DNA from: Catajapyx aquilonaris
Lineage: Eukaryota
Reading direction: 5' to 3'
DNA: 64,000 nt
Assembly: GCA_000934665.2 (NCBI GenBank)
Contig: KZ538241.1
Location: forward strand, 1 to 64,000
Shown: piece by piece, positions 17,201 to 63,724 of the stretch
Position numbering within the stretch: position 1 is the stretch's first letter
How the letters are laid out: each line of letters opens with the position of its first letter
The notes under the pieces: generated by a model
What the model saw: only the letters and a program-made list of their open reading frames with translations
What the model was told of the DNA's origin: nothing
Databases searched by the model: none
Made by a program: the position numbers and the translations under genes

Positions 17201-17404
17201 ATCCAGCACACCGTCAGTCGTCCTTGTACTGCACGGAGTACTCGCTGCTTTGTTCCCGACACGACAGTGGGAGCATGCGGCGAGGCGAGCACCCGTCGGA
17301 GGGGAGATGCGTTCAACCGACGCTCAACTGCCGCACTCAACGGTCATACCTGTGCGTCGAGGCCTCTGCGCATCCTCATCCCCACTGCCTTCCAATGTTG
17401 CCAA

Positions 17405-24000: not shown

Positions 24001-24495
24001 AGTAGAAACGACATACACACGCAGCATGTACCGTAATTACTATTGCACACAAAACGTCGAATTCAAATCGTTCAATGCAGACCCATAAAACTAGACGAAG
24101 CGAGGATTACAAGTCACGTGCAATCCGTCCGTTATGGCAAGCCGGCCATAAGAAGCCATTGTCAAGACAGACACCGTGTGTCAGCTTCATTTTCATGCTA
24201 AAAGTACAGCAAGCAGGGATAGGTGCAATACGCATTGTTAGTAGAGCGTGTAATGTATGGCCGTAGCTTGTTCTTCAGATGCCAGGTGTCAGTACGTTGA
24301 AACAGGTGACAAACAGTTCAGTTCGTCGGGTTAGAGCTATTTGTAAGGCTCTCTCCAGCCTGAGTAAGTAGATAATACCGATTTCATTCAACGTTTGGCG
24401 CGTTATTTTACAATATGGGGGTGTGCACAGTTGAGGTATTTTGTACCTGACAGTATACCATATTGCACGGTGACTTTTGTTTTTTTACAGACAAA

Positions 24496-27299: not shown

Positions 27300-29662
27300 C
27301 TACCGAAGGATGCTTTCCGGATCCAGGTCCAGGTTGGGGCCGGACTCTTCTCCGCCCCCACATGAAAACGAAGAGCAATCTCTTTGTCTCACAGCTTCCA
27401 TCACATCCACCAGCAAGCTGCTCAGTCTGCTGGACACATCTCTGGGCAGCCTGAAAATGGGCGGCATCCTTCTTGAGAAATGCACAATGCCATACAACTG
27501 GGTTACGAAACAGGAATTGCGCCCTTGGCCCATCACCTAGTGGGCTTGTGACAGCTGTATCATCTTCTGTCACGGTTCCGGGCCTATCTGGGTAAGGAGT
27601 TTCCGACTTTCTCGAAGGGACCCCGCGGGACCTGCGATGGTCACCCAGGTCGCACCCAGTGTTATTTGTGGCCTCCCACGAAGACCGAGAGAAAGGCGGG
27701 TCCTTCCGCATAATTCGCGACGACCTACATGTAAGATGCTCTCTTACGGAGCCAGCTGGCATTCTAAAGCTTCCGTATTTCACGTACGGAATTGATAAAG
27801 CCAACAACAATGGCACCGCTGCAGTTCCTTTATCAGTTGTTGACTCAAAACCTGTTCGGCTCTCTCCGTAAGTAAGCACATAACCCAATGGGGTCACGGG
27901 GAAGGAGCCGCGCTGCAACTGGCTTCGAGAAATTTACTTCTTGATGCACCGAGAATAAGGATGTGATAATCCTTAGGAAAATTTAGTGCGGAGAAACTAC
28001 TTGGCCAAGCCCAGTACTGTCTTTCTTCCGCGATGTGTACGCAATGCTTACTGGACTGGGCATCAACCGGCTAGCTCTAAGCGTGAATCCTGTGGATCCC
28101 TTGCGTAATAGGGGTCCCCTCGTTAGTTACACACAAGCTGTTCCAAGATCAGCTCCTTATATCCGGCCCAGTAACCTACGCAATACCTACATGGAGAGAA
28201 ACGTGGTCATCCTCTTCTCCATCAGCATGACGGCGTCATCCTTCTGCTGCACCATTACGTCGCAGAAGATCCTCTTGGCGCATGGAGCTTCTCTCCACCC
28301 GCCGAAGCCCATGTCCTGCAGCTTCTCCAGGACGCTCCTCTGAGAGTGCTCCAGACTCTCCAGCAGGTTGTCCATGATGGGTTGGTCAATACCTGGTACC
28401 TGTCTCCTCTCCCTGCTTCGGACTTGTATCCCAAACTTGCCCATTTTGCTCAGGTACCAACTGAGGGCCAGTGCCCCGACCCCAAGGGCAGCTCCACCTG
28501 CAAGGACGGCTGCTGGAACCACGGCCTCAGACTTTCCAATCTTGTCCCCAACTTCGTCTATCTTCTTGCTGATCCCCAGGTTGTCGGATATCTTGACTGA
28601 GGCCTCCATCAAGGGATCGAACACGGGCTTGGTGAAGTCGCGGATCTTCTCGCCGACTTTTTGAAAGATGTTGGTCCGGTTGCGTGGACCGTGTGACGGG
28701 TAGGCGTAGTAGTAAGGGGGAAGGAGGTAGGTCACCTTTTGGGCAGGGGGTGCTGGCTGGATGGCAAATCGGATTGTCTTGCCGTGCTGGTCCTTTGGGA
28801 TGGGGATTGGGACGGTGAAGACTGGCTGTCCGGGGCCGGCTTGGTATGTCTGGGGCTGTATCACGAAGGCGTTGCTCGGAGCAGGCTGGATTCCGTACGG
28901 ATTAGCAGGTACGCCGGCCTTCTCTTCAGCAACGTCCTGCTAAGCAATGGGCAGTATTGTACAGGGTGTTTCTTAATGAAGTGGTATATTATGAGCACTC
29001 GTTAACATCACTGCTTCTCTAAGTCCGCCGCCAGACGACGCGACGCCTATACAAGCTTAATATTGTGCAATCTTATTTCATTAACTGATAGAACATTTAG
29101 CAGTGTGGGTATGCCTTAATAATTAACTTATTCAGGAACATCGTCTTAGAAGCAATGGTCAGATTGGGTCTACCTGGTAACCCTCTGATGAAGAGGCCTC
29201 GGGGGATTGGTAATTCATGGGTTGAAAACCATCCTCCTTCTTTGATGACGGAAACTTGATTCCCTTGGAGTGAAGTATCCTGCTCTGAATGGTCAGCGAC
29301 GCTTTCTTGGGAACCAGCACTCCGTTGATGACCCTTGCGTTGCGCCACACCTTCACCTTGTCCTCTTCATCATCCGGAACTCGAACTCCGACGATGGTTT
29401 GTATTCCGTCAGTTCCGACTTCGATACGACGTCCCTTGCGGCTCTTGTCTCCGGGCACGTCTTTCACTGACAATACATCAGAAGTGATTGTGATTGGCGG
29501 AGGCAGGGCAAACTCGTCGTCACTTCTTCTCTGAAGCACCGGGAGCTTAACCGTTGTCGTGTCGATGTCAGCCACAGTTGTCGCTTCTTCAGGAGGATCT
29601 ACTGTAGTTGTCGGCATCCCCGTGGCCGTTGCCACGAGGACCACAAGTAACCCTCGCCACAT
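27300..29662 (-). CDS. Uncharacterised secreted/membrane protein, ~461 aa, with DM4/DM12-like Cys tail
   Basis: Exons 29662-29174, 28936 (or 28939)-28191 and 27450-27300 join in frame (phases 0, 2). Signal peptide MWRGLLVVLVATATG, motif GVRVPDDEEDKVKVWRNARVINGVLVP, Pro/Tyr-rich middle, hydrophobic AAVLAGGAALGVGALALSWY, RERR site, then PCAKRIFCDVM...MEAVRQRDCSSFSC. Confidence 0.85.
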
Positions 29663-32600
29663 CTCGCTGCTGAAATAGGATTTCCAATCAGTAAATTGAT
29701 TCATGCGTAGCTAATATTCTCTCATCCCAAATATTTCTGTGGGTGCATGAACCTGACATGTAGCGGATATGGGGAACAAACACTACAATTGGGACTACAC
29801 ATATACGGTTTAGTAGGACGACGTAAAGCTACACAAGGTCACAACACGCCTGTCATGGAGCGTCTCCTCTTCCAAAGATGGCGAAATGAGTGAGAGCCGG
29901 ACAAGTACGTTGATTGTCGCGATGAACACAACACATGAACCTGTTCGGAGTATAAATTACCTGAAGGCTGCATGTAGCATGTAGGCTCCTCGCTTATTAT
30001 AAAGTGCTGTCGTCTAACGGTGACTAGATCTTTTGGCGTGGTCTAGTGACCTCCACCCAACAAAGGTGACAATAACGCCAAGGAAAAAAATTTAAGGAAG
30101 GGCATCAGTCCCTCCACCCTGTCCCTATTCTTCGTACTTTTTGTTCGTTACATGGAACAGATGGCACCCGATTACACCATTAAAAGTACTTTCACACTTG
30201 CCAACCTGCAATTACTGATAAATATTGGTCCTGCAGAAAGGACCTTCTCTACTTCCGGCTCAAGTGGGACACTTTCCCTGAAAATTAAATGACTCCCACT
30301 TTTTTCCTCCATCTCCGACCAGGTCGCTCCAGAATAATTTCACCGGAGAGAAGAATTTCCGAGATGATGATGGCCATCACCGCAAGGGAAGCGAGTATTT
30401 GCCTTAAAAATCTCTGAACCGTAGATGATGACCACGGTGAGGGAAGTTGTAGGATCAGATACCGTCACTGGGTCTTTGGGTCACAGGGCCAATTTCTGTG
30501 GTGCTGAGCAATTTCGCTTTCCTCCACTGGACTTCAGCTGCTTCTTCGGCTGCTCTCTCTTCAAGGTGACTGGCCTTGCCCATATACATGCCTTCAGGGC
30601 ATGTTCATCATCTCGGAAGTTCATCTAGAAGCTCTATATTTGACACACAAATTATTACAACAAAAAAGTCATTGCTGTTTACCGGTTTTGGAGCACCTGT
30701 TAACGTGATAAAACGTGACTTGGTATTTTTTACGGAGGGGCAAAAGAGGTCTCAGTGAAAGCAAGTCTTCTTTAAGTAGAATCTTAACGGTGTGCTCGGA
30801 CAGGAGTAGCCTTCGCAACATTTTTACAGGGAAAGTGTAGTGTTAGTCACCTGCTTTGTAAACACGTGTTGCCACTTCCAGCACGTGTCCTAACAATATT
30901 AATTTTTCTTTGCGCCGTATTGGCGTTCCGGTAGGTAAGATACCGTTACAGGAACAATTCAAGAGTGCAAATTATATCACGTGAAGCGAGCACTTGGATG
31001 TTGTATAACGGTAATAAAATACCAATTCCAGTTCGAAAGGTCGCCTCTTAAAATCGTCAACAGGCTTTTTGCATTTTGATATTTGCGAACTACAAATATT
31101 TACCTTATTACACAAGCGATTATATCGCTGTATTTTCTTACAAATAGAGGAGTGCCGAAGCAGGCTGACAAATATCAGCACTTGTAAATAAAACAGACAT
31201 TTATCTCCCATGTTTTTTCCGTGGTCGTGTTTGTATTTTCACTTTTAGAAAAACAACGCTCATCTTGTACTGAAGCAGGTGAAATTTAGCCCGTGTCTGT
31301 TTCCACAGAGTGCATGATATGATCTTCGTGACAACATGATGCTCTTTATAAACCTTTTTGTATGCAAGCCTCAGCACGATCCCAGGAATATGACTTTCAA
31401 ATGATATTCTCTCCAGTAGATAATGAATCAAAAGAATGAAAATGACACAACTTTCGCCATATGTCGAAAATATCTCAGTCGTAATCCTGTTGAATAACTT
31501 TCTAATTGCATTTCTGTTATATTACGTGACAAATGGTACGAGATGCGTGGTGTACACTCTTGCTCACTATGACATTAATTGGTATTTGCCGACGTCCTGT
31601 TTGTGACTGTCAATCCAAATCGCTATATTGTAATGCTGATTTTTCAGGCTATTAGTTAACCGGATGTTGCATAATTAGATCACAAACCAGTATCGGAATT
31701 TTTCTGACATTTCACAAAATTCCCTCCCTTCATAAATAACTAAAAAAACCAAGGTTGCAATTAACTACGTAACTACTCCATGCAAAACAAAACGACCGTG
31801 ACCGTCACGGTCCTGGATTAGACCCTTAAAATTGCTAAAACACCCAACACCGTCTGTGACCAGTTCCAGCCCCAATCGACTACCAGAAGTAACTGTATCT
31901 TTCGTGTCCCATTTCCCCACTGAACGAGCCCTACATGTTTCACTTGGGGAACATCCATCGACTTCGTCTATCCCGAGTCCTGAAGGCAGGTGAAATTGTA
32001 CCCAGTTTTTTTTTTCTCTAACTTCAATCTCTCTCATTTCTCCTGCTAATCCCATCCCACAAAACTCGCTTTCACAACATATACATCAATAAAAATCCTT
32101 CCGGTGTTAAATGGAGCGTGGTGTGAAAATCACTGCCAGCATGCAAATGAAGCAAAGATCTTACCATGTACTGAATGATATATAATCAACACATACTTGT
32201 ACGACCAGCTAATTGCTACAGGTTCCTTTTTAAAAATGGGCCAAGCGCCCAATACTTAAAAACCAGTAACTATTTGCGAATTATTCCACATCCAAAATAA
32301 CGGAATTTTTTCGCATGGCTTCTCATCTTTTGTTTTTGAACTGATATGTAGGTTGATTCTCAAACGTATAGTTAATAAATCTAGATTTTGCGGATTTTTA
32401 TTATTTGCAAAATGAGTTTCTTATTGTTCCACACACAACTGGGAAAAACCTCGTCATTTGATTCGCCAACATGTGAGGGTTCGTGACAGGTACTTTGCCT
32501 GCTGGGAATGGTCTTTAGCGCTGGTTTCATGCTTATGCCAAAAATGGGGCATTGCCTTCACAAACATTTTCTTTCCATGGATCAGGAAGCGCTGCTAACC

Positions 32601-42035: not shown

Positions 42036-43392
42036 ACACGGTTCTGCGGTTGTCGAACATTATAATACTAATCTAAATATTGGAATATCTGTTTATTGGA
42101 CTTTTTGGCAATAGCCTATCACTTGAAGGCTCGAAATGCAGAACGATCCGAGTCACACTTGTTATGTAGATCTAAATTGAGTTAGGAATTGCTAGATATA
42201 ATCCTTGATTATAGCACTTTCTAACAGTTGAGTCAGTTTGCACATTGTGCAATAGCAGAAAAATGTTGGTAAATCTTATCCCATAAGGTATAATGCAAAC
42301 TTCAAGAGCTCTTATCTCGAAAGTATTTAATTCTACCATAGTTCTGCATACCGGCCTTCACTTTTAAAAAGCCACTGAAATGTCATGTAAATAGCCTTCT
42401 CTTAGAAAACTAGCAGTATTGTTTCCTCGGTAATGGAGGTAGTCAGCGGTGAAGAAGCAAGATAATCCTTAATCGCTGACTACATATTTTTTATAGAAAA
42501 ATGACATTATGTTGATCATGATTATTGCTATATTTACATTTGGACAATTCAGTGATTAATCGAATGCAAAAGTTTCAGTGACTACTATAGGGTCACATAT
42601 ACAGTATATATATTTTTAACTGTGCACTTACATTGCAGAAGATCATAACGCTGAATTGTCACCTTCTGAAAAGAAACAAGATAAGCCTAATTATTTCAAG
42701 CAAAAATGTGGTCGTTAAATTAATATGCTTTACGCCAAATAACAAATTGTCCATATAATACCGTATATAAAAAGTTGCTACCCAGGCAATGTCTGTCACC
42801 TAGTGCACCATTAAAGTTATTAAAGTTTAAATTTTAAAACGTTTTATGTGGAGCATCACACAGGCCTACAGGATCAATTACGTTAACCACAGTTTACGCC
42901 TGGACACTTCATAATACAATTTAGGCCGGTTTGCAGTCACTGAAGTGTATCAAAGATGTCATGAAATGTATTTAAAGCTAGCGGGTAACTGTACCACTCA
43001 ATTCCGGATTACATCCTAAATGTTCGATGAGAACACCCACCCTTTGTTGCGGTTTTACAGCCGAGTGTAGGGCAGTTACTGAATAGTCCCATCTATGCGG
43101 AACATTACGTACAGTAACCTTTACCGTTGAGCCCACATACGATATCCAGCATATTTTTCAATTTCTGTCAATCAGTTTTTATAAATTCATTCCTACATAG
43201 TATTCAAGTCATGGCCATCAGCATTGTATTACCAGGAGTCTCGTGCCTTCCATTAACCTGCCAATTGGCAATAAAGCACACTAACCGGATCTCATAACCG
43301 GGTAATCTACAACTGCTGAGTGCAAAAAGAACCAGAAAACAGTTTAACCCCTTTTCCAGATGTCCCTCCCGGGCTCGAGGGCCCCATCTGCG

Positions 43393-45471
43393 ATGCTGCG
43401 AGCCCTCACTCTCCTGACCACCTTGGCCGCCGTCTCATCCGAAGACAGGGCGACCCTTCACCTGTCCGAGGGGGAGGACCGACCTCTGGCCCTCTACAAT
43501 GCACCTCCGACATACGACTCGGGCCGAGAACACAAGACGACCATCCTGGTGGCCAACCCTTCCACAACATACTCTTCCAGGAATGTCGAGAACATTCCCG
43601 TTTACTCGCTGGACTGCCAGGGAAAATCCCGATGCAGCAGGACCATACACCACCGTACAATAGACGCCACCACTCCTTCGCCGTACAGCCGAGACGGACG
43701 GGACAGGTCACTCAGGAACTTCTACAATGACATGTGGTACAATCACCTGGGCGGAAGGGCCCTCGCAACACCGACTTTCTCCGATGACTACTACTTCGGC
43801 AGGAGGACAGGTGACGTATCGTTATCGGAACCGATCGACGAGTACTTCAACAACACATATTTGGAAAAGATCATGGATAAAAACCCGGTTCGCAACTCGT
43901 CCGAGTACGACCCGTTTAGGTTCCGACCCAGTGAGGAGCGTGGATGGCCATCGCACTTGTCTCATGTGCCGTCAGGGTACGAAGGTCATCCTAAACGTCC
44001 CTTAACCAGCGGTCTCGGGCTGGGTCCAGGTTTCGGGCAAGGCAACGGCCTCGGGCAGGGTCCTAGTTACGGGCAGAGTCACAGACCGAGGCCCGTGCAG
44101 GGTGAATGGGTCAGCCTGGAGCAAGTCCCATACACGGCGACGCAAGTGTCCAAGTGGGTATCCCATCGCAATGACCTGCCTCCACATGACCGGTGGTCAG
44201 AGGACCGCCCTGGATCAGACAGCTGGCCTAACCGTCTGTCAGACCGGCCAGGAAGTTATTGGGGTGTTGCTAACAGTGGTGGTGGCGGGGCACGACCCAC
44301 TCAGCACTGGAACTACGAACCATCCCCATCATACCCTTCCTCCATAGTGGCCACCCCATCACCCTCCTACTTCAGCTCCTGGGAAAGACGTCCTTACAAG
44401 CACGCCACCATTGACAAGATCCCATCGCCATCTTCCTGGAGTGGCGGTGGTAACCGTCGTCCTACCCAGTCATTCAACCCTTCCGGTTCCTGGCACCGGC
44501 CCACGCTGGCACTCCCCAACTCCCTGAAGCACCAGAACCATCAGAACCACCACAACAAGCGGCCCATTGCCCCTACGCTGTACAACAACCCGATGCCGTA
44601 TCAAGATGAGGGATGGGACTCCCCACCTGCATGGGACCGTCCGAAGCCGTCCGCGTCCCAGTGGGACCAATGGGCCGACTCCAGCGACCAGTCAGCGCCC
44701 ATGTCTGCCTCGTTCTGGACACGTCCAAACGGAGCCGGAGGAGGTTCGTCCATGGAACGACCTGGCTACACCCAGATTGAGACAGAAGAAGGTGGCACCA
44801 GATGGGTTCTACTGTCCAGCACCAAGGGAGGTGTGGACTACTCCCCAGCCAGAGCCTTCTCCGATAGGTCACTCAGCCCGCCCAGGTCATCCATGGGCAA
44901 CACCATCATGAACACAAGGGCCACCATACGTCTGAACGTGCTTCCGCAGGTCGGGTTTCCTGACGCCACCTCACTGCCATGGCCCAGCAATACCCCAGTC
45001 ACAAAATGGGTGGTGACACGTCGACCCGGCTGGTTAGGAAGCTCCACCACCTACTCCAAGCCATGGGATAAACCATCTGGTGTATCCTCAGTGCCCATCA
45101 TCAAGGACAACAAGAAGAAACCTCCAGGTCTAATACCCTGGCCTAACAAGCCCACGCAAGGTCTGGCCACACCTGACTATTTTGAGAAGCTGAATGCCAC
45201 ACTTCAGTCGTTGAAACCGGTGCGTGTCCGCAACCGAAAGAAGAAGCCGCTTAACTACACGTACATTAGCACAAAGTGGAAGGGAGAGGGAGGTAGGGGC
45301 AGTGGGAAACTAGTGGATGATCTTGACCTGAGTATGGAGGAGAGGTCAAACTCTGATGTGGCTGGTTCTGGTAGAGCCATGGGTGACACTACCACGACGG
45401 AAAGCAGTCCGTCGGGTGCGTGGGTCAACTGGCCTGCTAGCAATGTAGCTCCGAACTATCGTCAAGACTGA
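43393..45471 (+). CDS. Uncharacterised secreted Pro/Ser/Trp/Gly-rich protein (~692 aa, single coding exon)
   Basis: 703-codon ORF from 43360. The signal-peptide-like MLRALTLLTTLAAVSS starts at the second ATG (43393). Mostly low complexity, with islands such as YDPFRFRP, GEWVSLEQVPY...VSKW, WVLLSSTKG and ATIRLNVLP. Confidence 0.85.
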   Translation: MLRALTLLTTLAAVSSEDRATLHLSEGEDRPLALYNAPPTYDSGREHKTTILVANPSTTYSSRNVENIPVYSLDCQGKSRCSRTIHHRTIDATTPSPYSRDGRDRSLRNFYNDMWYNHLGGRALATPTFSDDYYFGRRTGDVSLSEPIDEYFNNTYLEKIMDKNPVRNSSEYDPFRFRPSEERGWPSHLSHVPSGYEGHPKRPLTSGLGLGPGFGQGNGLGQGPSYGQSHRPRPVQGEWVSLEQVPYTATQVSKWVSHRNDLPPHDRWSEDRPGSDSWPNRLSDRPGSYWGVANSGGGGARPTQHWNYEPSPSYPSSIVATPSPSYFSSWERRPYKHATIDKIPSPSSWSGGGNRRPTQSFNPSGSWHRPTLALPNSLKHQNHQNHHNKRPIAPTLYNNPMPYQDEGWDSPPAWDRPKPSASQWDQWADSSDQSAPMSASFWTRPNGAGGGSSMERPGYTQIETEEGGTRWVLLSSTKGGVDYSPARAFSDRSLSPPRSSMGNTIMNTRATIRLNVLPQVGFPDATSLPWPSNTPVTKWVVTRRPGWLGSSTTYSKPWDKPSGVSSVPIIKDNKKKPPGLIPWPNKPTQGLATPDYFEKLNATLQSLKPVRVRNRKKKPLNYTYISTKWKGEGGRGSGKLVDDLDLSMEERSNSDVAGSGRAMGDTTTTESSPSGAWVNWPASNVAPNYRQD

Positions 45472-48948: not shown

Positions 48949-51900
48949 GTATACACTCTGGTGTAAATTATTACTGGTGTTTCACTGATCTCAATGTATA
49001 CAAAACAGTAGGGCTATTGTTCTGTGCAAACAAAGTAGTCTCACTGGGCAAGTCACGGATGGATGCTTCTATGCAGGATCTTGCGGAACTACTAACCATA
49101 TAAACTACTTCGAGCTGAATTCTTGATCACTTCCGGATGATAATTGTTTTTATGTTCAGGTATTATTTGCTCTGGGGCGTCTTGTTAACCAAGTACTAGC
49201 CTTCAAATATACAGTATGGGCAAGTATATCCTAGCAAGTATAAAACTCTCTGCGCCAGAATGCACATTTAATTTAAGCTAAAAATATGTATGATGACATT
49301 ATAAGCTTTTTGTGGCATCATCAATTACATGAAATGAAATATCTTTCTGGTTAAACCACTCTCATACCTCCCGTGAGATTTGCGTTATCTAACTAGCGGG
49401 ATACTTCCAATCATTCAAGTGGTGATGTCACCATAATTTGCGATGACGGAGCAAACAAGAGTCCTGGCAAGAAGGCCCACATTTTCGTCTTAGAAGAATT
49501 CGCGCAAGTCGCCCATTATTCAGGAGTTACTGACCAATCCGCATACTTTAGCTCTCAAAACTTACGACATTTGCTTAAATTATGCCAAGATGTCCCTTTG
49601 CAACAGCCTCTGCAATATGTTAGGTGACTTCAAACACTTTTAAAAGTGTTACAAAAATTTTCCAGAAATGCGTCAGGAAATCGGTGGAATTATAATACTA
49701 CAAAAAGTGACTGCATATCGCTGACCGGAAAGGTTGTTCACCCAGTTGCTCTAACTTCGTAATATAAGACACGAATTAAACTCGCATTATATTTGCAAAT
49801 TATTCAATTCGCCGTGATCCATGGATGGCACAGAAGCTCTGCATTCATGAAGACGCCCATTCCATGGCACTAATTAACCTCCCGTGTCAAACCTACATTC
49901 ATTCGCTTTGCACTGTGCCCCTGGCCATCTCTTCATCAACATTTACATGATTGTCATCTTTTGCTCTCGATTCATTCACTACCCGCATGGAAATGATACT
50001 TGACAAACTCTAGTGCTGCAAAGCTGGTTTCGGGTTACCTCGCATTTGTTTCCTGCGAATGTCTTGCTTGCAATAAATCTGAACATCCGCGACTTCCTCC
50101 ACGTCCGTCAACCTACCATAAGTCATTTTAGCAGATATACCATTAAGATGCACCACGCCTCTGATAAGCATGAAGCGGTGCAGTTCCACAATATTCACAC
50201 CTGAAGTGAATATGAAGTATTTAAGTGGTTAGGAAATAAGCGCGCGTGGGTCACGTATGCCTACTACATCACACGCATCTTAATTGCGACAGTTTTCCTT
50301 GGCGTCCTCTTCTAAATATGATATATTTAATGGTTTTACAGGATTACCGAGGTAGAAACCAAGAGGATTCTCTCAAGAGTGCAATTGCGTTATGTTTCCA
50401 CTGACAGGGCTGTCACTGCCAGCAAGAGAAGGATGGCAGGAAGGATCCCCGTGGTGTAGAATGTTCTCCATCATCTTGCCCTCTTGAATCCTCCCATCTA
50501 CTCCTTCCCCCACGACCAACCCTCCTCTTCCTACACCCAACTCCCTTCCTCCCTCCGCCACCGCCTTACCCCACCCCACAATCAACCTGAGCGTATCCCC
50601 TCTTAACCGGTACCAGTCCACTCGAAACCTGTCCCTTGTTGCACCTGCTTTGCCAACTCTCTCTGTGTTAGGTATACTCCGATCCTCAGGTGAGTAACTG
50701 TCAATTTCTCGTGCCGTATCTCATTAGAAGATGTATATGACCATTCAGTTTAGATATTAATAGGATTTATACTGTATTTCAAAAATGTATTTGTATCTGT
50801 AATCATTATTTGCAATTGTTTCCACCAAAGCAGATAATCTCATGATTGGGGTAGTGAAAACATACCAGTGATTACAAGCATGTTACTTACATAATATGTT
50901 TCAACCCATCTAGGAGTAAAATGCAAAGTAGTGTAAGCCACAGTGGTCCAAACCCAAAAGTATTATTGGCATGTATGACGACACATACAACGGCATTTTC
51001 GCCCAACCAGCCAACACATGAACTTTGCATACAACTAATATATCTTCAGGGCATTTAACAATCTGACGTTGAATTCAAATCAACAACTTCACTCTCGTAA
51101 CGGACACTCGCTATGCAAAGTCCTCTTTGCCCTTTCGTTGCGCCTGATTACTTCTTAATGGCGATCATTTGTTTGGAAAATTGTACGAAATAAAAAGTAA
51201 AGGAATGTAACTGTAGTACAACATAAATCCAGTAATTCGAGTTTCTTTCGCGTTCAAAAAACCGGCGCCAGATTCACTGTAGCAAACACGTTATGGGCAC
51301 CGAGAAAAACCTACTCTTCCCATGGTACGTTCTGAGATCGAACCAGCCGCTCATTAAATTGACGTAACACCCCCCTTCATCCCGAGAAATTCCAATGGGA
51401 AGAGTGGCTCACGTCACGCCAACAAATTATTACCAAACACTTCCCATGAGTCAACCTGATTCTCGTTCAATTCAAATCAAAGGGTCACTCCTCACCTTCT
51501 CCATACATTTCCTTAGAAGTTATCTGTCCCAGGACAATGCGGAAGTAAGCACCATATGAGTAGTAGCTTCCAAGAAAATGAGAGCGAGAGGACATCAAAA
51601 AAATTAAAGGTAGAGAGAGAGGGTTTTAGTTCAGGTGCGCATCTGCTGTGATGGGCGCACCGTTAGGACTCGTTCCGCCGAGAAGAGCCAGAGATATGCG
51701 TGGAAGAGCACGCTGCCCACTTCACCTCACCTGTGGGCCAGCTTTACCCCCTCTGCTCTGACCCCGTGACCAAGCCTCAGGACCGATCATCTAACATGAA
51801 ACGCACCATCATATCACGGATGGTCAAGTACCGGTGTCAACCTAGGCCGTGCGTGTGAGATGGGCCTTGATAAATCAGAGGGTACGTGAGATAAAGTCCA

Positions 51901-52374
51901 AAGCACGAGTCCAAAGAAGAAAAAATAATAATATCGGGCAATCTAGCGCTCTACAACCATCAGACCTCTATCAAGGTGCTATTCTGCACCTTATGATCGT
52001 GTATGATCGTGTTTATGATCGTGTGGACAAAAGTTGACAAGGTCAGGGAAAGTCTAGCTGGATCTCTCAATTTTGACAGTCTCCGGATCAAACTGAGAGT
52101 GCAAATAGCATAGTACGGCAATAAAACTTGACCTCTTCGTACAGTACGTATACAGTGTGAGAACAAGCAACAGCATGGCACAAATTGAGGTGGAATGCTA
52201 CATATTGAGGCTATACACGAGATCTGATCACAACGTCACGAAACAAACTGACCCACTTTAATATTTAATACCCAAATTTTTAAATCAATTGGTGTATGAT
52301 ACTTATCGTGGGCATACAAGATAAATTCAGTGTTCAATTTTGGTGGTTCTGATTTATTTACACCACCAAGTAGC

Positions 52375-52717
52375 TAGGGAGGCGGAGTGGTGCTGCGGTA
52401 ACGTATGCGCCCACGGATGTTAAGGTCCCGGGTTCGATCCCAGCCCGGGGACACCCCCTTCATCTCGTGCAGAGTTCAGGGTCACCTCTGGCTTCGTCTC
52501 GGGTGGTATTTCCTCAGATTAAACCACCCGGGGGAGTTCACTAAAAATGGCCACATTAAGACATTGCACTGCACCTTGCACATCCCCTCCTGTCATCCTG
52601 CCCGTGGGCCCGGGCGTTTCGTATAAAGGCTCCAATGTATACCATAATAAATAAAGGTCCGTGCTGCATACCTCAGAGGAGGTCAAGCACTACCCCGGAT
52701 TATTATTATTATTATTA
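52375..52717 (+). mobile_element. tRNA-derived SINE (family 3) with (ATT)n tail and 17-bp TSD
   Basis: Head with GGGTTCGATCCC B box, a tail of about seven ATT units, and TSD TTACACCACCAAGTAGC at 52358-52374 and 52718-52734. Confidence 0.9.
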
Positions 52718-52919
52718 TTACACCACCAAGTAGCATTTTTCTGCTTTAACGCGTCGTAATGAATCATAATGAGCCAAAAAGCCAGGATGCACTGTCTTCA
52801 CTACAGCATGTATACAAGTGCAATAATTATCTTGAAGCTGTTTTTTTATTGAATTTAGAGAATTCATTTTGTATGTTCACATTATTTCTTGGTCAATATA
52901 ATTTATTTACTTTTACCTA

Positions 52920-53128
52920 CACTGTAAACCGCAAAAGATTAAAAGAGCATCATTGGTGAGTCTCTCATGAAACATCAATTTCTAATGCTCTTCTAATGCT
53001 CTTGCGATGCTTTTTGTTGCTAAAAAGCATCACAAGAGCATTAGCACAGCATTAGAAGAGCATTAAAAATTGATGTTCGATGAGAGACTCACCAGTCATG
53101 CTCATTTAGTGTTTTGTGGTTTACAGTG
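52920..53128. mobile_element. Palindromic MITE with CACTGTAAA termini
   Basis: TA|CACTGTAAACCGCAAAA ... TTTTGTGGTTTACAGTG|TA. The whole element is an imperfect hairpin with internal TAATGCTC repeats. Confidence 0.8.
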
Positions 53129-54487
53129 TAGGTATATAAACACCTGAAACAATACCAAAAATTGCAATGTCAAAAGTGACGTAAAGATTTGCGTATTGGA
53201 AACAGTTAAATGCATATTCAAGCATTAATATGTAAATGATCCAGCGTTTTGAGCCAATAGTAAATCCGCAATAAAACTGCCTTTTAAAGACCTCCTTTTA
53301 AAACAAAAAACAGTTCGACCTCGCTTTCTCGTGCAATAAATACCTCTCACTCTCATCAAAATCCTGGCCGGTCCCCCATTACTTTAGTAATCCATGTCAC
53401 GTCCCCAACAAGCATTTTTCCTCAGTTTCCTGTATGCGAATCACAGTGAATGTCAAGAACCCCACAGACAACCACGCCATGTGCACCCGCCCTCAAACAA
53501 GAACAGAATAATCGTTCCGTTGTTAACTCATAAGCCCGACCTGATTTGGATACAGGACACACAGACACCGATCTGCCAAATGATGAGGAATCTATCCAAA
53601 TTGGTAGCTTCTCGATCTGATCTCAAGAAGCTTCATGTCCTGTGGGTTCCTTTCCCATGATTAGCGGTAATACCTTGGGACACTTCCTGCACCGTACTCA
53701 CATACACCCTAGATATGTGTCAGTGGGCAAGGAAAATGTTTACAAGAGGCGTCTCCTTGTCCCGTGAAGGTACCCTTTTTTCAAGTTCCCACTTCCCAGA
53801 TCTCACCATCGTTGCCTGAAGGTATCAATAAACCAGCTCTTCCCATGACGTAACTACTTAGACCGCTTTGGCTCATCCAAACGGAAATGGGACAAAAAAT
53901 TCTGGCCTGCAAAACTGACTGGGTAAATTCGGGTCAGTTTTATTAACAGTTGGAGGCGTTGCCGTGAAAATTCGTCGATGAGTGGTGAAGAATACGTGCG
54001 GAGAAAAAGGAGGACGTTGATCGTTTTAAGCATTAAATTGTTGGATGCCATGGAGCAAAGTGTGAAATTTCTGCAGGTTACGCTGACTAGTAAATGACAC
54101 AAATTACGTGGGAACATGTGTACACATCCGCGTAATAAAATTCGGGCACCGGTTACACGAATCACGTGCGTTACATTCAAGAGAGATTGTGCCACAAGAG
54201 ATAAATCACGTCAGACAAATGATTTGTGGATGATAACGGAGTAATGGCATGTCTGTAACCAAACTGTAACCTAGGCCAAATATTGGTCACGCCACATAGC
54301 ATCAGTGTTAATAGCAAGCCGGCGCTTAAGGTAAATTGCCATGACGATAGAGCACACGCAATAGTCTGGGGTGTTTGGGAGCCCCAGTGGGTTTCTCGAC
54401 CATGACAGATAGTAGTTTTTTTTCGTGCCAGTAGTGCTATCGAAAGCGTACGGTACAGAGAGCGATATTCATCATATGGTGCATATA

Positions 54488-54703
54488 CAGGGTGTTTCAA
54501 CTTTTTTGTCCGAACAGTTATCGGAAATATTGCGTTGAGCTGCTACATTGTAAGCAGTGTATGCCACTTCAACTACCTAAGATTCGTAGGAAATATTCCC
54601 CATTCCTCTGACAAACTGGTTGCAAGTCACTGCTTACAAAGTAGCAGCTTATAGTGCAATATTTCCGATAACTGTTCGGACAAAAAAAAGTTGAAACACC
54701 ATG
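54488..54703. mobile_element. Tc1/mariner-type MITE, TA TSD
   Basis: TA|CAGGGTGTTTCAACTTTTTTGTCCGAACAGTTATCGGAAATATTGC ... GCAATATTTCCGATAACTGTTCGGACAAAAAAAAGTTGAAACACCATG|TA. Confidence 0.85.
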
Positions 54704-55100
54704 TATATTTGCCTCACACATTCTTGGCCGTTCACTTAACAGTAGTGGCCAACATGGCCTTCTCGATATAAGGAACAAATCCAAATAACGTAACTATCCA
54801 AGCTTATAACCGCGAGCAACTGTGCCAAATTGAATCTCACCGCTGAAAAGGAAGATTGGGTTTGGACATGCTGATCAAAATGCAAAAGACGAGGAAGAGA
54901 TGCTAACGCAGCATCCCGTTATTTCGAAGAGAAGGCCAAACCGTTCGGTGGCTTCCTCAGCATCTGCCGTGGGTTATGAGCTTAACCTATTTTAGGGACA
55001 AAGAGGAACGACGCAATGGAAACCAAAGAATAGACAAAATAGAGGGCAAACTGGTTGACAACCTGGCTTACAATTTCCTCCACTTTTCAGCCAGTCCAAA

Positions 55101-58100
55101 ATGAGGAGGTTAAGAGTCAACTTCTTCTGGATTCTCCTTCTCAGCGGAGCCGGTGTGACCACGGTGGCCCTCAAAACACACCATGGACATGACCAAGGTG
55201 AGAGCAAAAACCCAATTTGCTACTACTCTAATCATTTGAACTCAAAAGTGACGGAAGAAGTTGGAATTATTCCTGCCGATTACCCTCTTCCGCTTGAATT
55301 ATATCGTTTAAAAAAATGTTGTTTGCAACGGTATCTTTTGGCAAAATGACCGTTTTTATTTTTCTTTAACAAGATTGCAACTTTTATTACTGATTAGATG
55401 CCGTTACCGATTTTTAAGATCTTCACTGAAATCACGTAATAACATCGTTAAGGATCGCCTCAATTTCACCACACAGCCTTCTCATTATATCAGGCATGTA
55501 CAGAAATTGTGGAAGAAATGCGGTGCTGAGGCTATGACTACAAGAAGTTAAAACTGTCCATGTACAGATTGTAATGACATTACTGCAAAGTGGGAATATT
55601 GGGGAAGAAGTACTGTGCTCTTAATTGCAGCATTTATGACCTCGTTTGTCTCCCAAGGTAATATTCAGACCCGTTCCACATGGTCCATCCAGCAGTGTTG
55701 AATACAATATCGCTCCTTCACTTGGCATATTCAGTGAAATAAATGCCAATATTTATCGTGATAATTTCTTCCAAATAATAAGTTCTAAAAAATATTGGCT
55801 GAAGCAATCTGATACGTTACACCATTATTTTATGATTGTCGAAATATCGCATCACTGTCTAAATCGGAAATGAAAGCTAATATTGATATTGCAGGTTCCA
55901 AGTTCTGCGTCCAATGATGCTACCTGGAAGGTGGAATGGGAGGGGGGAGAGTAAGTCATACACTACAGTATAATGAGGAACCATTTGCATTCTTTGCATA
56001 TGCAGTGGGTATATACCAGGTTGAAACTTTGCCAAAGAGATCCTTTAAAATGGAAGAGAAAGTTTTGCGTTACTGCTCCAACAATCTAAACTGCCTTCAT
56101 TTGTTTGCATGCCAGGGGAGACAGTGGCAAATGATGATCTGAAATGCAGAGCGATCCAAGCCACAATGAAATAATTGCGAGTTGTGACACTTTGAAGCAT
56201 TAAGCTTTATTCCTTTGTGTAGGATTCTTGTTATTTAAAAATCCTTGACTATAAGGAATGGTTCATTCTTGGCATATGTTACTGGACAAGTGTACCCTCA
56301 CGAACTACATTAAAACATGAATAAATAATCAACTTAGAGCAAGACTTCACTCTAATGGAACTCATAGATATTAAAGCCTTTGATGTCTATGATAGAACTG
56401 CAGTTCAGGTCTTATTCAAATAAGAGGCGGATTCCAAACTATCCAAAGTCCATTTTTGTTCTTTTGATATATTTGGGTTGGCACGAATGTGCATGGACTT
56501 CAGAAAATTCTCAGATTTCTGCGCTTGGAGTTAGGGACATTTGGTGTGTTCTGACCTCAGGAATGGGGAGTACCATAAGCTACCAATAGGTGATATCTGC
56601 TCATTTTTTAATGAAAATCGACTTAGGGGACTTTGGAATCCCACTCTTATTGTGGTCATGATGGTTGATTTTTATTTAAAAAATTTAAAAATAGGTGTCG
56701 AGCTGGCAAACACTAACATGTTTTGTCTTACAGAATAATAGCACGACACTCTACGTTCATGTACATTAGAAAATATCACTCTCCTGTAACGGTAAATTAA
56801 TATAAAATATTTGAAAGTAATACGCATATCTCTTCAGTTCTAGGTAGAGTGACAGTGGAAAAATTACAGTACATACGTACATACAGTACTCGTAAAGTTA
56901 TTTTAATTGCCATATTGCTACAAGCCATAACTAAACGTACAAACGGCACAGTATCAGGGTACAATTTTCATTGGTGGCGCCACATGCATGTCAATGTGGT
57001 ATAGGCTCATATAAAATGGTATAAACCCCATTGTGCTATTTCGTAATTTTAGCATTCAGACCAAATTAAGCCACATTTGTTACCCAATATTTCCATATTT
57101 AAGCTCCAATAAGCTTCGAAGTCCTACATTTACATACATTTAGTAACAAAATATTCCATATCATGCATATAGTAGATGACAGCTTTTATAACAAGTGTCC
57201 TCTCTTAGGTGCCGCACGAGCAGCAGCAGAGAGCTCCGAAGACCTGCTAAGGGGCATGGAAAAAGTAATCACACCTGCATCAACATTACCATCCACACCA
57301 TCATCCACGTCGGCGTTCAACACGGCGACCAAACCACGAACCTCATCATCGTCGGCATCGACGCAGAAGAACACGACAAACTACCTCCTGTTGACAAGAA
57401 CCACTCCATATGCCAGGTATGACACCATCTCCAAAGTACTTCCGCTTCGGCATGCCAGTGGAGCAAAAGCACAAAACAAAAAAACACCCTTCCATAGAAA
57501 GGATAGAAAACCTCGCGAATCCACCCGTTGGAGGCCCGTTCTACTTAATCGGAGTCACCATTATTTGGAGCAAGCCGCTGATCCGGAAAGCCCCGCTGAT
57601 GATGATTCTCTTCCGGACAGCCAGCAAGTCGAGGAAGACGAGACGGAAGAAGAGGATGAGTCGGAAAAGGCAGAGGAAATACCCCAAGGAGACGATCACG
57701 CAGACAGAAGCAGGACAGAGGCTATCGTTCGTCACGTCCTGAGGGACATGTTTCAGCAACTCAACGAGACACAGTCTGACCTCAATATATTTGTGACTCC
57801 CACTAAGAACGACACAGAGACAGATGACAGCCCAAAATTTATGGTGATGCCGACTGCTCAGGTAAAACACATGTTGCCAAAAGACGCTGACCTGGAGGCA
57901 GCTGTTCAGAGAGTGGCTGCATCCCTGCGATTACCGACACCAACCTCTGGGTCGTACGTCTTGAAAGGAAACGTGCAAGTGGGCAAACATGCTTCGTCAG
58001 TAGCCAAAGTACCCGGAAGCGAACCGTTTGACACTGCAATACCACTGGTGGTGAAGACGCCCGATGCTCCTTCTAATCAGGACGAATACATCCGTGACTT

Positions 58101-59580
58101 CGTCGAAGGCGTGTTCACTGGTCCCCAATTCAACTCTTCCCGGAAGCCCAGTGTGGTCAACATCTTTGTGCTGAATTTAGGAGAGAAAAACGACACCGTT
58201 GTTAGCACCGGTGACTCACAAACGGTGCCGTTTCACAACAACCCTAAACAAGGAGAGCCTGCTAGTAACCCTATTACTCAAAAAGTAAATATTCTGGAAC
58301 TACTGCCCGGTAATCTCAACTTGGGCGGTCCCAAGTTGACCCAGAAGTTAAGCCTGACCTCCAAGGAGCCTGAATGGTCAAACACTTCCACACTTCAGCT
58401 GACATCTGGAACTGCACCAGCATCGGTAGAGACTGGAAATAAGCCATCGACATCGACGCCCGAACAATATCCTCTAAGTGGTGGGGGTGGGGTGGGTTAT
58501 GCCACAGGCATTGGTGGGATAAAGCAGAAGAAAAAGAGGAAGAAAACGGGGCAGATCATTACACCCGCGGTCAATCAGAACAAGCTGAGAAACATGGTCA
58601 CTGCATTGGGTATTACAGCACTGCCTACGTTGGCGGCTGGGGCTGCAGCCACGTGGCGGTACTGGGTACCCATGCTGACCGGTCGTCGTGCACGTCGTTC
58701 AGCGTCATTTTCTGAAGAGCTGCCGCCCGTTCGTAAAACAATTTTAATATCTCCTATGGAAATGCCCATTCCAATACACTGGATACCTCGACTGGGGGAC
58801 TCAGCAGAGAGAGAATATCTTTTCCATAGAGATGGCGATACCGGAATTGAGAACAAGTATAAAAAGCTCAAGACACTTTCAGCACGTCCGCAAGATCTGG
58901 AGCTGGTGGCCAACTTTTTAGAAAAAAATGTGCAGTGGAAAGAAAAGAGCTCGGACTCTCATGATGACCCTGCAAAACCCAAGCAACTGTCTAACTCTTC
59001 GGACACAACAATACAACGCACGCCTCTGTATGAGAGAATTTCATGGCTGCCTCCTAAGAAGATACAACAGGAGCAGTTGTCCACTATTGAAAACGACCTT
59101 CAGAATCATGAAGAGACAACAATAGACAGTCCTACTATCTCACCTCGTGATGGAAGCTCCCACTTAATTATATCCCTCAAAAAGGAAGAAACCGAATCTA
59201 ATGCACCTGTTCCCGTTACACTTCCACCTATTGTAGTTCACGCCAGCATGAGGACTACACCTGTAAGAGGAGCTATTAATGTATTGTCATCGTTTGGCAG
59301 TACGTACAAAACCCCATCGGCCACAAATACAATTGATGTTGCTCGAACTGAAGATAATTTCGGATCGTACACGTCCGTCTCGTCTAATTCGGTGCACTAT
59401 GCTACAGAAGAATTTGATTCATTTGAGCAATCATCTCCTAATTTTAAAGCAGTTGCGTTAATATTCCCTCCTCGGATACACAAGGTCAACTGGTACACGC
59501 CTGCAACCGTGACCGAAAAAACAACAGGACAAGTTAAAGAGAGGGGCTTCCTTCCGGTTAAAACTTTATCTCCTCCATAG
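55101..59580 (+). CDS. Large secreted/membrane Ser/Thr-rich protein, isoform A (822 aa)
   Basis: Signal-peptide exon 55101-55197 (MRRLRVNFFWILLLSGAGVTTVA...DQG, phase 1) splices in frame to 57209-59580 (acceptor TCTCTTAG). Acidic patch, KQKKKRKK, hydrophobic ALGITALPTLAAGAAATWRYWVPMLTGRRARR. Confidence 0.8.
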
Positions 59581-59830
59581 GCAACGGTAAGAGGCAAGTT
59601 GCAGTAGGTAAACATGGGCAAGACTAATTAGTAATTTAAGGTTTTCCTATTATTTAATTTTCTGTGTCAGAATCCTATTATGCGCGTTTTAAATTTAAAC
59701 AGGGTTTTAAAAAGTCAAATATTATACCAAAAAAGTTGCAGGTGCTAGTCAAGTGTGTATGGTAGAACTCACCCATTAAATTATACTCATGTAATTCTGA
59801 AGTCTATTATTTTTTACCCTATAATTGCAG

Positions 59831-62699
59831 AACTTCACCATCACTATTTCTTTCCAGAATTGAAAGCGACACTGATCCGACTGAATACGACATGACCGGC
59901 CGACCCACGACTATAGTAGATCATACGGACACGACGGACACAGGACAGAGAAGTCACACGACCTCCAGGGCGACTTCCCTCTTCGGAATGGCCAACCCCC
60001 TTATGGACTTTGCCCTTCACTTTGATGACCCTGACCACAACTATATCCGACCAGACAAACAAACGACTTCTATGGTAGACTCTGCAGGCCAGCCTTTGCA
60101 AAGTTCCTTCAATTTGCTAGCAGGTCAGCTCCTACGACCAGGGTCTTCCATGGAAGAGTCATCCACTCCACGCTCTCACCAGTCGCCAGTAACCATTACA
60201 CTGTGTCCTCCGGGACATACATCCTGCAATCCTACCATGCCCGTCCACTGGACCGTAATGTCCGTTCCAACGACGAAACCATCTACCAAGCTGACTACGT
60301 GGAGCAGCGTGGAAGAAAACGGCGAAATGGTTCCCAATCGAGGGAGGCCTATTTCTTTGCAGACACAGCAGAGTGTACAGACGACTGTGGGCCCAACCAT
60401 CTCCACGACTTCGGAGATGCCTCGCCTGCCTGACTTCAGCACCATACAAATGGTGTCAGCTTCAACTGCGACCACAGCCTCAACACCACTTCTACAACCG
60501 CTAGCCCACTATTCAACCACACTAAAGAAGAATACCATGGCATCAACAACACCAGTGAAGGCAACGGAGAAGCACACCAGCGCAACAATGTCCACAATGA
60601 AGCCAACAACGCAGACTAAAAGGTCACCAATACCGCCGACGGTGCTAAAACGAACAACTTTAGGACCGACTACTATCACCCGACGACCGCCAACTATTAT
60701 TGTGAAAAGAACTACCCTGGTACCCACTACCATACTGAAGGAACCGTTCAGTCTGACGACACTTCGTAGAAAGACAACTCCTTTCCCAACGACGCACTTC
60801 AAAGAAACAACTGCATCGCCAGAGTCACTAATCATTAGGCGAACAACAAAGGCACCAACAACGCATTTCAAAGAAACGACTGCATCGCCAGAATCACTGA
60901 TCATTAGGCGAACAACAAAGGCGCCAACAACGCAAGCTCTCATTCGACACACGTCCCCATTCAGGGTCAAACCATCCCATTTGTCAAGCTTGACCCATTA
61001 CCACATGTCATCCTCTCCATCATTCGACCCTTACTCGGAATATGACGAGATGGCCACACCACCTCCCAAAAGCTACGTCAAAGTAACATCCCTGCCACTG
61101 GACGAGTACAAGCACAAATTTACGTACAAGTTTAATTCCACTCGGACCACTACCCCATCACCTACAAACCACTTCGACGATCAAGAGACTAACTATCTTA
61201 CGTCCTGGGGAGGCCTGACTCAACTCTTTCCTGACGATAACATCAACAAGCTCACAACTGTTCTGCAAGAGTCTCTCAATTTCACTGTCACCAGGTTGCC
61301 GCCAGGTTCCAGTACAGGTTCACCTTTGATCGTTCTGGCAGGAGGCTCCGCAGCACAAGGAGTACCTGCTGGTTCGGGAGGTGTTGTTGCACCAGTTGCC
61401 CCAGGAGGGGTTGCTGCTGCACCAGGAGGTGTTGCTGCTGCACCAGGAGGTGTTGCTGTTGCACCAGGTGGCCTTGCTGCAACAGATGGTGCTGGTGGTT
61501 CAAGCGAGCTGGCTGCTGGAGATAATTCAGCTACCGTTATCAATGGAACCAAGTCACCCGGCAGCAACAACGGACCACTTGCCACCAAAGACGGGAGTCA
61601 AAGTTCCGGCGGAACTGCGCAAATACCAGGAGCAGGAACTCTGTCCGCGTCCAATGGCACTTCTACTAGTAACACTACAAAGGCGACCTCCAGCGAAAAA
61701 GATTCCAGCGAGTCTTCTGAAAGCTCAAGTTCGGAGGAATCCTCCAAGGAATCCTCAGAAGTGACGCAGCTCTCCAGCGCCCAGGTCTCCAGCGCCCAGG
61801 ATACCAGTGACGGACCTACTTCAACAAAGGACTCCTCTCAACAAGCCCATAGCGGCGGATCTTCTGGGCAACACGGCGGTGGCAAGAAGAAGAAGCAGCA
61901 GAGTTCAGGGGGCAAGAAGAAGAAAGGTTCCGGGGGTTCAAAAAAGAAAGGACACAAGAAGAGGGGGAAGAAGAAGAAGGGCGGCGGATATAAGCACCAT
62001 CACAAGAAACCTTCCTTCTTCGGCCTCCACTCCTTCAATCCTCCAATACCTATCGGTCCTCCCCAATTTTCCGAACATATTCCTGCCCACCCACAAGGTT
62101 ATCCTGCTCCTATGAAACCGCCTAATCCTCATGTTGAACCAGAGATCAGTTTCTACCCAATTCAGCTAAACTACGACTTTTTTCGCAGCAAACTGATTCC
62201 AACTCTAGGGTTAGGTCTAGCCGGTCTTGCAGTTGCCACTTCTCCGTTCTGGATGCCTCTGGCAGCAGGGAGAAAGCGGCGGATATCCCCAACAGAAAGC
62301 GAGATACCAGAATATTACCCTGAAGATGATGGACACGCATCGGAGCACCTGGAACATTCAGGTCAATCAGCGCAGCATTCAGGACAGCTTTCCGACGGTG
62401 GAGAAGGAGAAGAGGAGTGGAAAGATCGGTATGATTCGGGCTTGGGCTTACCCTATCGTTACGAACCAGACTATCAATACCAACAACCACGTGCCAAGGG
62501 TTCTCCAAGGCAAATAGAAATGCTACCACCTATTCCAGCGATCCATCTAAATAACGGTAGGTGGATGACCGATCCGTACATCGTGTCAGGTAGGCAAAAA
62601 AGGGCTACCAAGTGGAAAGGCGATCACCCCAGAGGAGAGACCCAGACGTTGGTTGAAGACGACGAAGACAATGATGACCACGATGAAACCCAAGACTGA
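59831..62699 (+). CDS. Mucin-like Thr/Ser-rich coding exon (956 codons); probable C-terminus of isoform B of the 55.1-kb gene
   Basis: Frame is open from the acceptor at 59830 through the 935-aa ORF, with no signal peptide of its own. Thr-rich repeats, APGGVAA repeats, Ser/Glu patch, Lys/Gly/His block, hydrophobic LIPTLGLGLAGLAVATSPFWMPLAAGRKRR. Confidence 0.8.
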
Positions 62700-63724
62700 C
62701 AACTGGAGATGGATAAACATGCCCTGCCACCACACACCTAGTCTTCCAGCGCAGCCTCAAGATGACAGGCCGGCCAGTCCACGTCTGTGTTGTCGGCGGA
62801 TGAAATCACAGCATACGTTAATTCGTTGCAGTAATTAAACAGCTGATATCTGTGGTCGGTCTTGCGAAACCGCATTGATGTACAAATGAGAAGCCTTTTA
62901 GTAAAATAAAATGTACGTGATATTGAAAAAAAATCCAATGCTGTAAATATAAAACGCCATATGAAACCAAACTAAAGTCAATGCGTCAAAAAACTAAACG
63001 CAAAACCATACGTATTTATTGTCTTTTTTTTCTTTCTGAACATGGTGTTTAGCATCCATATACCCGCTGATTTCTCATTTTTGGTCATTGGAACTTGTCT
63101 CCCATGACTTTTTCATCCCCTCCATGACATGTCATGAACCCAAAGCTCTGTACTGTACATACCTACAATAAATGTCTCAACTTTCCATAAAATTTATTAT
63201 CCTTTTTTCGCACGATAAATATTCACATTCGCACTTTTTCATACCACACTAACCACAGCCTCATTGAGCTAAGATTGTAATGCACACCATTTTATTGTCA
63301 TTCACAACCAAGCAATGCGCAAATAATCACCTGAAGCGTCAATGAATTCATGAGCAGTCACAAACCAGTAACCAACTGACCCTCAAAATAGGCCTATACC
63401 CGCATAGGTGAACAGAACTTACAGGACAAATATTCGGCCATGTTTTAGGTAGAGTATGGAAAATGGCTCTTGTATTTCCAGCGGATTCAAAAATGTGCAA
63501 AGGGCATGCATTATAAGGTAAGAAATAATACTACGATTATTTAATACTTCAAATATATTGGTAATTGACACTTCAAGGAACCGGATTGCTAGGTCAAGGC
63601 AATATTACAAATTAACACAGACCACAAATCCAAATAAATATGACGGGTAGGTCATCTCGTTACATGATTTGTTGACTTTGGCACACCCTGTTCGTTTACC
63701 TTCGTGACTTAACATCCACATGCT

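Follow-up and report, generated by a model that had tools for sequence, protein, structure and literature searches.

At 55101-62699 of a 64-kb stretch of the genome of Catajapyx aquilonaris (GenBank assembly GCA_000934665.2, contig KZ538241.1, positions 1 to 64,000 of the forward strand; "the window" in the following), a single signal-peptide exon is followed by two very long open reading frames (ORFs), all on the + strand. We tentatively propose that this locus is an alternative 5' splice-site switch of the type known from the early region of simian virus 40 (SV40), here in a cellular animal gene for two mucin-like proteins, a reading to which we give somewhat less than an even chance. In its full form, which is possible but more doubtful, the choice between 5' splice sites 2.2 kb apart would decide which of two distantly paralogous proteins, ~800 and ~950 residues long, receives the signal peptide, with body 1 being either coding sequence or intron, and body 2 either coding sequence or 3' untranslated region (UTR). 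The anatomy of the locus suits such a donor switch better than any of the rival explanations tested, and the switch is partly supported by the analysis that follows.

The proposed unit begins with a short exon at 55091-55197. It follows an acceptor (ttttcag) at 55090, which lies 10 nucleotides (nt) 5' of the ATG at 55101, and ends in phase 1 at the donor AAG/GTGAGA after 55197, which leaves 1 nt. Donors were scored with a generic consensus matrix that was not trained on Catajapyx, so that all figures are rough; on this scale the donor after 55197 reaches 10.56 and ranks first among the 355 GT dinucleotides in 55050-62700. The encoded peptide, MRRLRVNFFWILLLSGAGVTTVA..., has a hydrophobic core that starts at residue 8, and exon 1 is the only one of the 50 ATG-initiated ORFs of at least 18 amino acids (aa) in 54000-59890 to show an N-terminal hydrophobic core at the usual position. 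Intron 1 (55198-57208, 2011 nt, 31-42% GC) is bounded at its 3' end by the acceptor tctcttag/G at 57208/57209, which needs exactly 1 nt, is the top-scoring AG in 57090-57330 and coincides with a rise in GC content from 31% to 53%. The exon that follows carries ORF1, open from 57103 to 59580 (825 codons; 805 aa from the ATG at 57163) and terminated by a TAG at 59578-59580. Its first part, 57209-57416, is the proposed shared exon 2a with 208 nt and 69 Ser/Thr-rich codons; the remainder, 57417-59580, is body 1, coding if the donor after 57416 is skipped and intron if it is used.

This donor, CAG/GTATGA, is present in phase 2 as the original prediction had placed it. It leaves 2 nt, scores 8.18 (rank 4 of 355) and is the best GT within ORF1; among the 40 top-scoring GTs it is the sole phase-2 site inside that frame. 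At the head of ORF2 the acceptors tgcag/A (59830) and ttccag/A (59857) are the two best AGs in 59740-60000, with scores of 4.57 and 5.09. The latter sits 27 nt further on and in frame with the former, and both need 2 nt, exactly what the donor after 57416 supplies. ORF2 itself is open from 59766 to 62699 (977 codons), and its first ATG at 59892 opens a 935-aa protein, MTGRPTTIVDH..., with no hydrophobic start; the earlier statements that this product lacks a signal peptide and that its acceptors are in phase 2 both hold. When 55101-55197, 57209-57416 and 59831-62699 are joined by coordinate, the result (isoform B) is open throughout, with 1057 aa and one terminal stop, in agreement with the uninterrupted protein that had been predicted; body 2, 59831-62699, accounts for 955 codons and the stop. 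The corresponding join that reads through the donor (isoform A) gives 822 aa, again with one terminal stop.

Directly downstream of ORF1, six bases (59581-59586) separate the stop from a further donor, ACG/GTAAGA after 59586, that scores 8.66 and ranks third of the 355 GTs; the stop, this donor and the 822-aa isoform are all found where the original prediction had set them. The gap from 59587 to 59830, 244 nt with 31% GC, has the look of a plain intron and ends at the tgcag/A acceptor, and the entire non-coding stretch between the ORF1 stop and that acceptor (59581-59830) measures 250 nt. Within the gap an ATTAAA occurs at 59775, 55 nt 5' of the acceptor, and the T-rich stretch after it is also the pyrimidine tract of the acceptor. 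Beyond body 2, candidate polyadenylation (poly(A)) signals are found in 62834-62910, an ATTAAA at 62834 and an AATAAA at 62905. Both frames lie in DNA of 42-51% GC, with an exon-like GC content of about 50% that drops to 31-40% in intron 1 and the gap, and at 825 and 977 open codons their lengths cannot be accidents: bodies 1 and 2 are real coding sequence, or were so until recently.

According to the proposed mechanism, the locus would form a single transcription unit in which the signal-peptide exon 55101-55197 is joined to the large exon starting at 57209, and two 5' splice sites in this large exon would compete for one 3' splice site at 59830 or 59857. Use of the distal donor at 57416 would remove 2.4 kb, comprising body 1 and the 244-nt gap, and fuse the signal peptide and 69 shared residues in frame to body 2, giving the 1057-aa protein. 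If it is skipped, translation would continue through body 1 to the TAG at 59578-59580 and yield the 822-aa protein, whose transcript might be polyadenylated within the gap (ATTAAA 59775) or might be spliced from the proximal donor, which lies 6 nt beyond the stop, and carry body 2 as 3' UTR. Both products would be largely disordered, mucin-like proteins of the secretory pathway with one hydrophobic segment followed by the motif GR[RK]xR[RI]S. That either junction is made, and in what ratio the two would stand, we infer from the splice signals and phases, and it is on the same footing that the donor at 59586 would presumably turn ORF2 into 3' UTR.

How readily such donors arise by chance depends on their phase. 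In a phase-2 donor the bases +2 to +4 form a codon, and the consensus sequences GTAAGT and GTGAGT would read TAA and TGA, respectively. A phase-2 donor within an open frame is therefore barred from GTAA and GTGA and can at most be GTAT, GTAC or GTG[TCG], so that GTATGA is close to the attainable ceiling. Among 2000 codon shuffles of ORF1, 76% contained some donor of the strength of that at 57416, while a phase-2 donor of this strength appeared in just 4.6%, because phase 2 forbids GTAAGT and GTGAGT. On the + strand of the 64 kb, 42 donors are at least as strong, or 0.66 per kb, and at this density one within 10 nt past a given stop is expected in about 0.7% of cases. Taken singly, either donor is improbable by chance (at 0.046 and about 0.007, respectively), and the pattern is more than chance, with the reservation that the locus had been picked for the original prediction after looking, which makes both figures post hoc and somewhat flattering. 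The codons at the 57416 donor (AGG, TAT) are not an unusual choice for ORF1 or ORF2, and a repeat search found no inverted pair connecting the region of 57416 with the acceptor, as long-range RNA pairing would have it.

The two bodies resemble each other in composition and layout. Ser, Thr and Pro together account for 28% of the residues in body 1 and for 34% of those in body 2, and Cys is almost absent (two residues in body 2), a composition that by itself suggests that body 2 is a secretory mucin-like protein. Body 1, which is acidic and rich in Ser, Thr and Pro, includes a Lys-rich cluster, and its hydrophobic segment and GRRARRS are encoded at ~58594-58700. Body 2 runs from Thr/Ser/Pro-rich mucin-like repeats through a Ser/Glu-rich and a Lys-rich block to a hydrophobic segment with GRKRRIS (~62200-62290) and an acidic tail. 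It includes a 69-nt tandem repeat with a Thr-rich unit (60786-60934, 2.2 copies, 92% matches) and a 21-nt repeat with a Gly/Ala/Pro-rich, elastin-like unit (61397-61480, 4 copies). Toward its end, within the last 50 codons of ORF2, there are two strong donor-like sites 33 nt apart, ACG/GTAGGT at 62556 and CAG/GTAGGC at 62589. Both bodies thus share an ordered module, Gly-rich, Lys-rich, hydrophobic and then GRRARRS in ORF1 or GRKRRIS in ORF2, and a six-frame search of the window found no other copy of the motif GR[RK]xR[RI]S. The basic cluster could serve as a stop-transfer signal or be a site of the furin type (R-x-[KR]-R), and either reading would put both proteins in the secretory pathway; ORF2 has a further furin-type sequence, RQKR. 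In a single BLASTP comparison of the two bodies the hydrophobic and basic part aligns with E = 0.001, and the C-terminal parts score 69, a value reached by 1 of 500 shuffles with parts picked post hoc, after the motif had been noticed. These similarities suggest that the two bodies are distantly paralogous. N-glycosylation sequons are mostly located before the hydrophobic segment (7 of 8 in ORF1, 5 of 5 in ORF2), a distribution that is not significant given the segment lengths.

Searches for relatives gave the following picture. Neither body matched a Pfam family at the curated cut-off (best E = 0.11 and 0.17), and none of the 15 ORFs in other frames or on the minus strand at the locus passed, with a single row at E = 0.006 and 16.9 bits against a cut-off of 30. 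A HMMER search of body 2 against 1.84 billion representative sequences returned 0 matches, and a word-indexed protein search with residues 22-977 of ORF2 and 470-825 of ORF1 found no match. Note that the latter search stayed blank even for a conserved exon of SNAPC1, a gene elsewhere in the window; the protein collection thus seems to hold no close kin of Catajapyx, and the lack of a homologue in it is no evidence of orphan proteins. Metagenome scans with both bodies produced 140 and 87 pattern matches and 0 confirmed relatives. In a protein atlas both bodies pointed to the same three arthropod clusters of 'hypothetical protein', with values of 0.78-0.87 that lie below the cut of 0.9 and serve as leads only.

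Several observations weigh against the proposed switch, in addition to the post hoc nature of the chance figures. The intron that would be removed has a GC content of 48-54%, unlike the AT-rich introns nearby. Other long ORFs, too, contain strong donors that are presumably not used, at 62589 in ORF2 and at three positions in an ORF at 43348-45471. The hydrophobic segments are borderline as transmembrane segments, with best 19-residue Kyte-Doolittle means of 1.54-1.58, and contain Pro, Gly and Arg, so that it is the composition of body 2 that suggests its dependence on a signal peptide. Over their whole length the two proteins are not significantly similar, the observed score being reached in 48 of 300 shuffles. 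No orthologue that displays the conserved donor or an annotated isoform emerged from the two protein collections and the metagenomes searched. Finally, the acceptor heading body 2 may simply belong to a gene whose first exon is separate and non-coding, given that in the window all four signal-peptide genes examined have a pyrimidine tract and a CAG acceptor 0-10 nt 5' of the ATG. In these genes the acceptors are at 55090, 24490, 29669 (-) and 43359, for ATGs at 55101, 24496, 29662 (-) and 43360, respectively, an arrangement that points to 5'-UTR introns placed hard against the ATG, or to trans-splicing, for genes of this class.

This last point leads directly to the view that the locus holds two separate genes, with body 2 under its own promoter and 5' exon or exons and the donor at 57416 a chance match, which we consider unlikely but still a serious contender. 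In one version a non-coding first exon would end at the donor 59586, the 244-nt intron would be removed and translation would start at the ATG at 59892; in another, a multi-exon signal region would lie elsewhere. Separate genes would obey what is a local rule for 5'-UTR introns and would explain the donor at 59586 and the acceptors without alternative splicing; at 4.6% a chance phase-2 donor is not very rare, and the strong donors in other ORFs likewise have an unused look. However, the ATG at 59892 is 34-61 nt from the acceptors instead of 0-10, the Thr/Ser/Pro-rich body 2 would be left without a signal peptide, and no other phase-2 signal exon for body 2 was convincing when 156 ATG-to-GT candidates from 50000-59800 were screened. 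The promoter, moreover, would be forced into the coding part of body 1 or into the 244-nt gap. The same gap figures in a dicistronic reading that we judge improbable, in which a single mRNA comprises exon 1, the full exon 2 (to 59586) and exon 3, body 1 is translated from the cap and body 2 is translated from the ATG at 59892 by reinitiation or internal entry, or, in a variant with trans-splicing, a spliced leader caps the downstream cistron at 59830. The donor at 59586 and the acceptor at 59830 or 59857 do bound a plain-looking, AT-rich intron of 244 nt, and the ATTAAA 55 nt 5' of the acceptor is reminiscent of an operon spacer, but reinitiation after an ORF of 822 codons is not expected, and body 2 would again be without a signal peptide. 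For the trans-splicing variant, an Rfam search across the 64-kb window gave 0 matches, including none to a spliced-leader RNA family, a weak point as it covers 64 kb only, and the start of SNAPC1 (17200, minus strand) has no acceptor close by in the window.

A different way to account for the strong donor so near the stop is a single protein of ~1770 aa, encoded by the exons 55101-55197, 57209-59586 and 59831-62699 and broken by a 1-nt insertion or deletion near the end of exon 2, which might be a true frameshift allele or a mistake of the assembly within a short homopolymer. From 59513 on, the +1 frame is indeed open for the 24 codons that remain of exon 2 and meets the donor 59586 in phase 2, as the acceptors require, and the region contains homopolymers (A6 at 59516-21, G4 at 59543-46 and A4 at 59560-63), where a single surplus base in the assembly would be enough to mean that both bodies form one chain. 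An open +1 frame of at least 24 codons is nevertheless found at 35% of ORF1 positions, and one chain would have to hold two hydrophobic-plus-basic modules with a mucin-like block in between. To this we add a frameshift test by codon log-odds, for which the window's three long ORFs, less the last 66 nt of ORF1, served as the training set. In this test, which is self-trained on low-complexity genes and uses overlapping windows, the lead of the ORF1 frame over the +1 frame is 7.7, 5.6 and 5.0 bits downstream of the A6, G4 and A4 runs, respectively; such values fall at the 55th-86th percentile when the ORF1 frame is true and occur in 0.3%, 0.8% and 0.5% of stop-free windows if the +1 frame is true. 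Codon usage, which for the final 19, 11 and 5 codons comes out in favor of the ORF1 frame, thus speaks clearly for a genuine ORF1 stop, and we regard the single-protein explanation as very improbable. We give equally little credence to a direct route in which exon 1, in phase 1, is spliced straight to a weak acceptor in the ORF2 frame, the bodies are mutually exclusive terminal exons and the donor at 57416 remains unused. The AGs at 59802, 59916, 59919 and 59943 need exactly 1 nt and would keep the ORF2 frame, but they score 0.02-1.96 compared to 4.57 and 5.09 for the strong pair, and both strong acceptors as well as both strong donors would be left unexplained. A small share of the probability goes to explanations other than those named here.

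The remainder of the window provides the setting for this locus. Background GC content is 31-42%, and blocks of ~50% GC within it are exon-like. The conserved housekeeping gene SNAPC1, on the minus strand at 16270-17323, has a GC-rich first exon, GT-AG introns and GTAAGT donors; its exon at 16270-16674 matches Pfam PF09808 with E = 8e-15. Among the other 75 ORFs of the window searched against Pfam, SNAPC1 alone passed the cut-off, and a VSR_TRX row at 11559-11909 (-) stayed below it. At 43348-45471 (+) there is a long low-complexity ORF of 707 aa, rich in Ser, Pro, Gly and Arg, with a signal-like start, MLRALTLLTTLAAVSS, no Pfam family and three strong donor-like sites toward its 3' end (45219, 45292 and 45415). 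Two further low-complexity genes look secreted, a Gly-rich one at 24451-25065 (+) with a signal-like start at 24496, and one at 28187-29710 (-) whose start, at 29662, is likewise signal-like. Taken as a whole, the window has the appearance of a neighborhood of lineage-restricted, disordered secretory proteins. Within intron 1 of the locus studied here lies an inverted repeat (56419-56456 and 56614-56651) with 38-nt arms, 82% complementary, and a spacer of 157 nt, which looks like a small insertion of the type of miniature inverted-repeat transposable elements. A candidate signal exon from 56383 or 56389 to 56543 was rejected here: it is more hydrophobic than exon 1, but its core is at residues 21-32, and it lies inside the inverted-repeat span 56419-56651.

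If the proposed switch is real, 2.2 kb of coding sequence would double as an intron and 2.9 kb as a 3' UTR, and the locus would illustrate how a lineage-restricted, fast-evolving secreted protein can acquire another body while no promoter or signal exon is added. The coding sequence would then have been shaped by having to carry a splice donor in a phase from which the consensus is barred, and gene finders would mis-annotate the locus, most likely predicting a protein of 822 aa and, separately, an orphan ORF without a signal peptide. If the junctions are absent, the locus is an ordinary pair of adjoining low-complexity genes.

Among known systems, the composite terminal exon, exemplified with intronic polyadenylation by the secreted and membrane forms of immunoglobulin mu and by calcitonin/CGRP, has an exon with an internal donor where read-through leads to a stop and a poly(A) site belonging to that exon, as the Catajapyx locus may have, and its products likewise have a common signal peptide and N-terminus with differing C-terminal bodies. 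It differs in that a strong donor follows straight after the stop here, and in that the candidate poly(A) site in the gap consists of one ATTAAA. Like an exitron, the sequence from 57417 onward would be coding when retained and intron when spliced (Marquez et al. 2015, PMC4484396); exitrons are further described in PMC10985678 as containing no premature stop and lying within one coding exon. On these descriptions an exitron is ruled out, as the retained block ends in a TAG and the 3' splice site lies beyond the 250-nt non-coding gap (59581-59830). Compared to a spliced-leader operon, the downstream ATG follows the acceptors by 34-61 nt, and no spliced-leader RNA family was found in the 64-kb window. 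With regard to the proteins, the Ser/Thr/Pro-rich composition, the tandem repeats and the near absence of Cys are those of mucin-like, disordered secreted or membrane proteins; unlike known members, neither body matched a Pfam family or found a homologue in the protein collections searched. A type I membrane mucin-like protein would fit the signal-like exon and the composition, while the hydrophobic segments reach 1.54-1.58 only and the basic cluster is also furin-type.

The closest parallel is the early region of SV40, where, as described in PMC2999850, one pre-mRNA intron has a pair of alternative 5' splice sites used with one 3' splice site and gives rise to two proteins with a common N-terminus. 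At the level of sequence the Catajapyx locus likewise has two consensus donors upstream of one acceptor within one proposed unit, and a join from the distal donor to the exon downstream would keep the frame, both being in phase 2. In SV40 the small-t frame stops just 5' of its own 5' splice site, and the second exon of large T is untranslated in that mRNA; here the read-through frame ends 6 nt before the proximal donor. The donor switch put forward in the original prediction is partly supported by the sequence signals, the phases, the odds by chance and the real ORF1 stop, but it is less new than its title suggested, since this class of mechanism is already known from SV40. The junctions here are proposed from sequence signals, and unlike SV40 the setting is a cellular animal gene, with a shared part that consists of a signal peptide and 69 residues, a removed coding block of 2.2 kb and a common downstream exon of 2.9 kb. 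If the switch is real, it is this scale, together with the sharing of a signal peptide in a cellular gene, that would be unusual.

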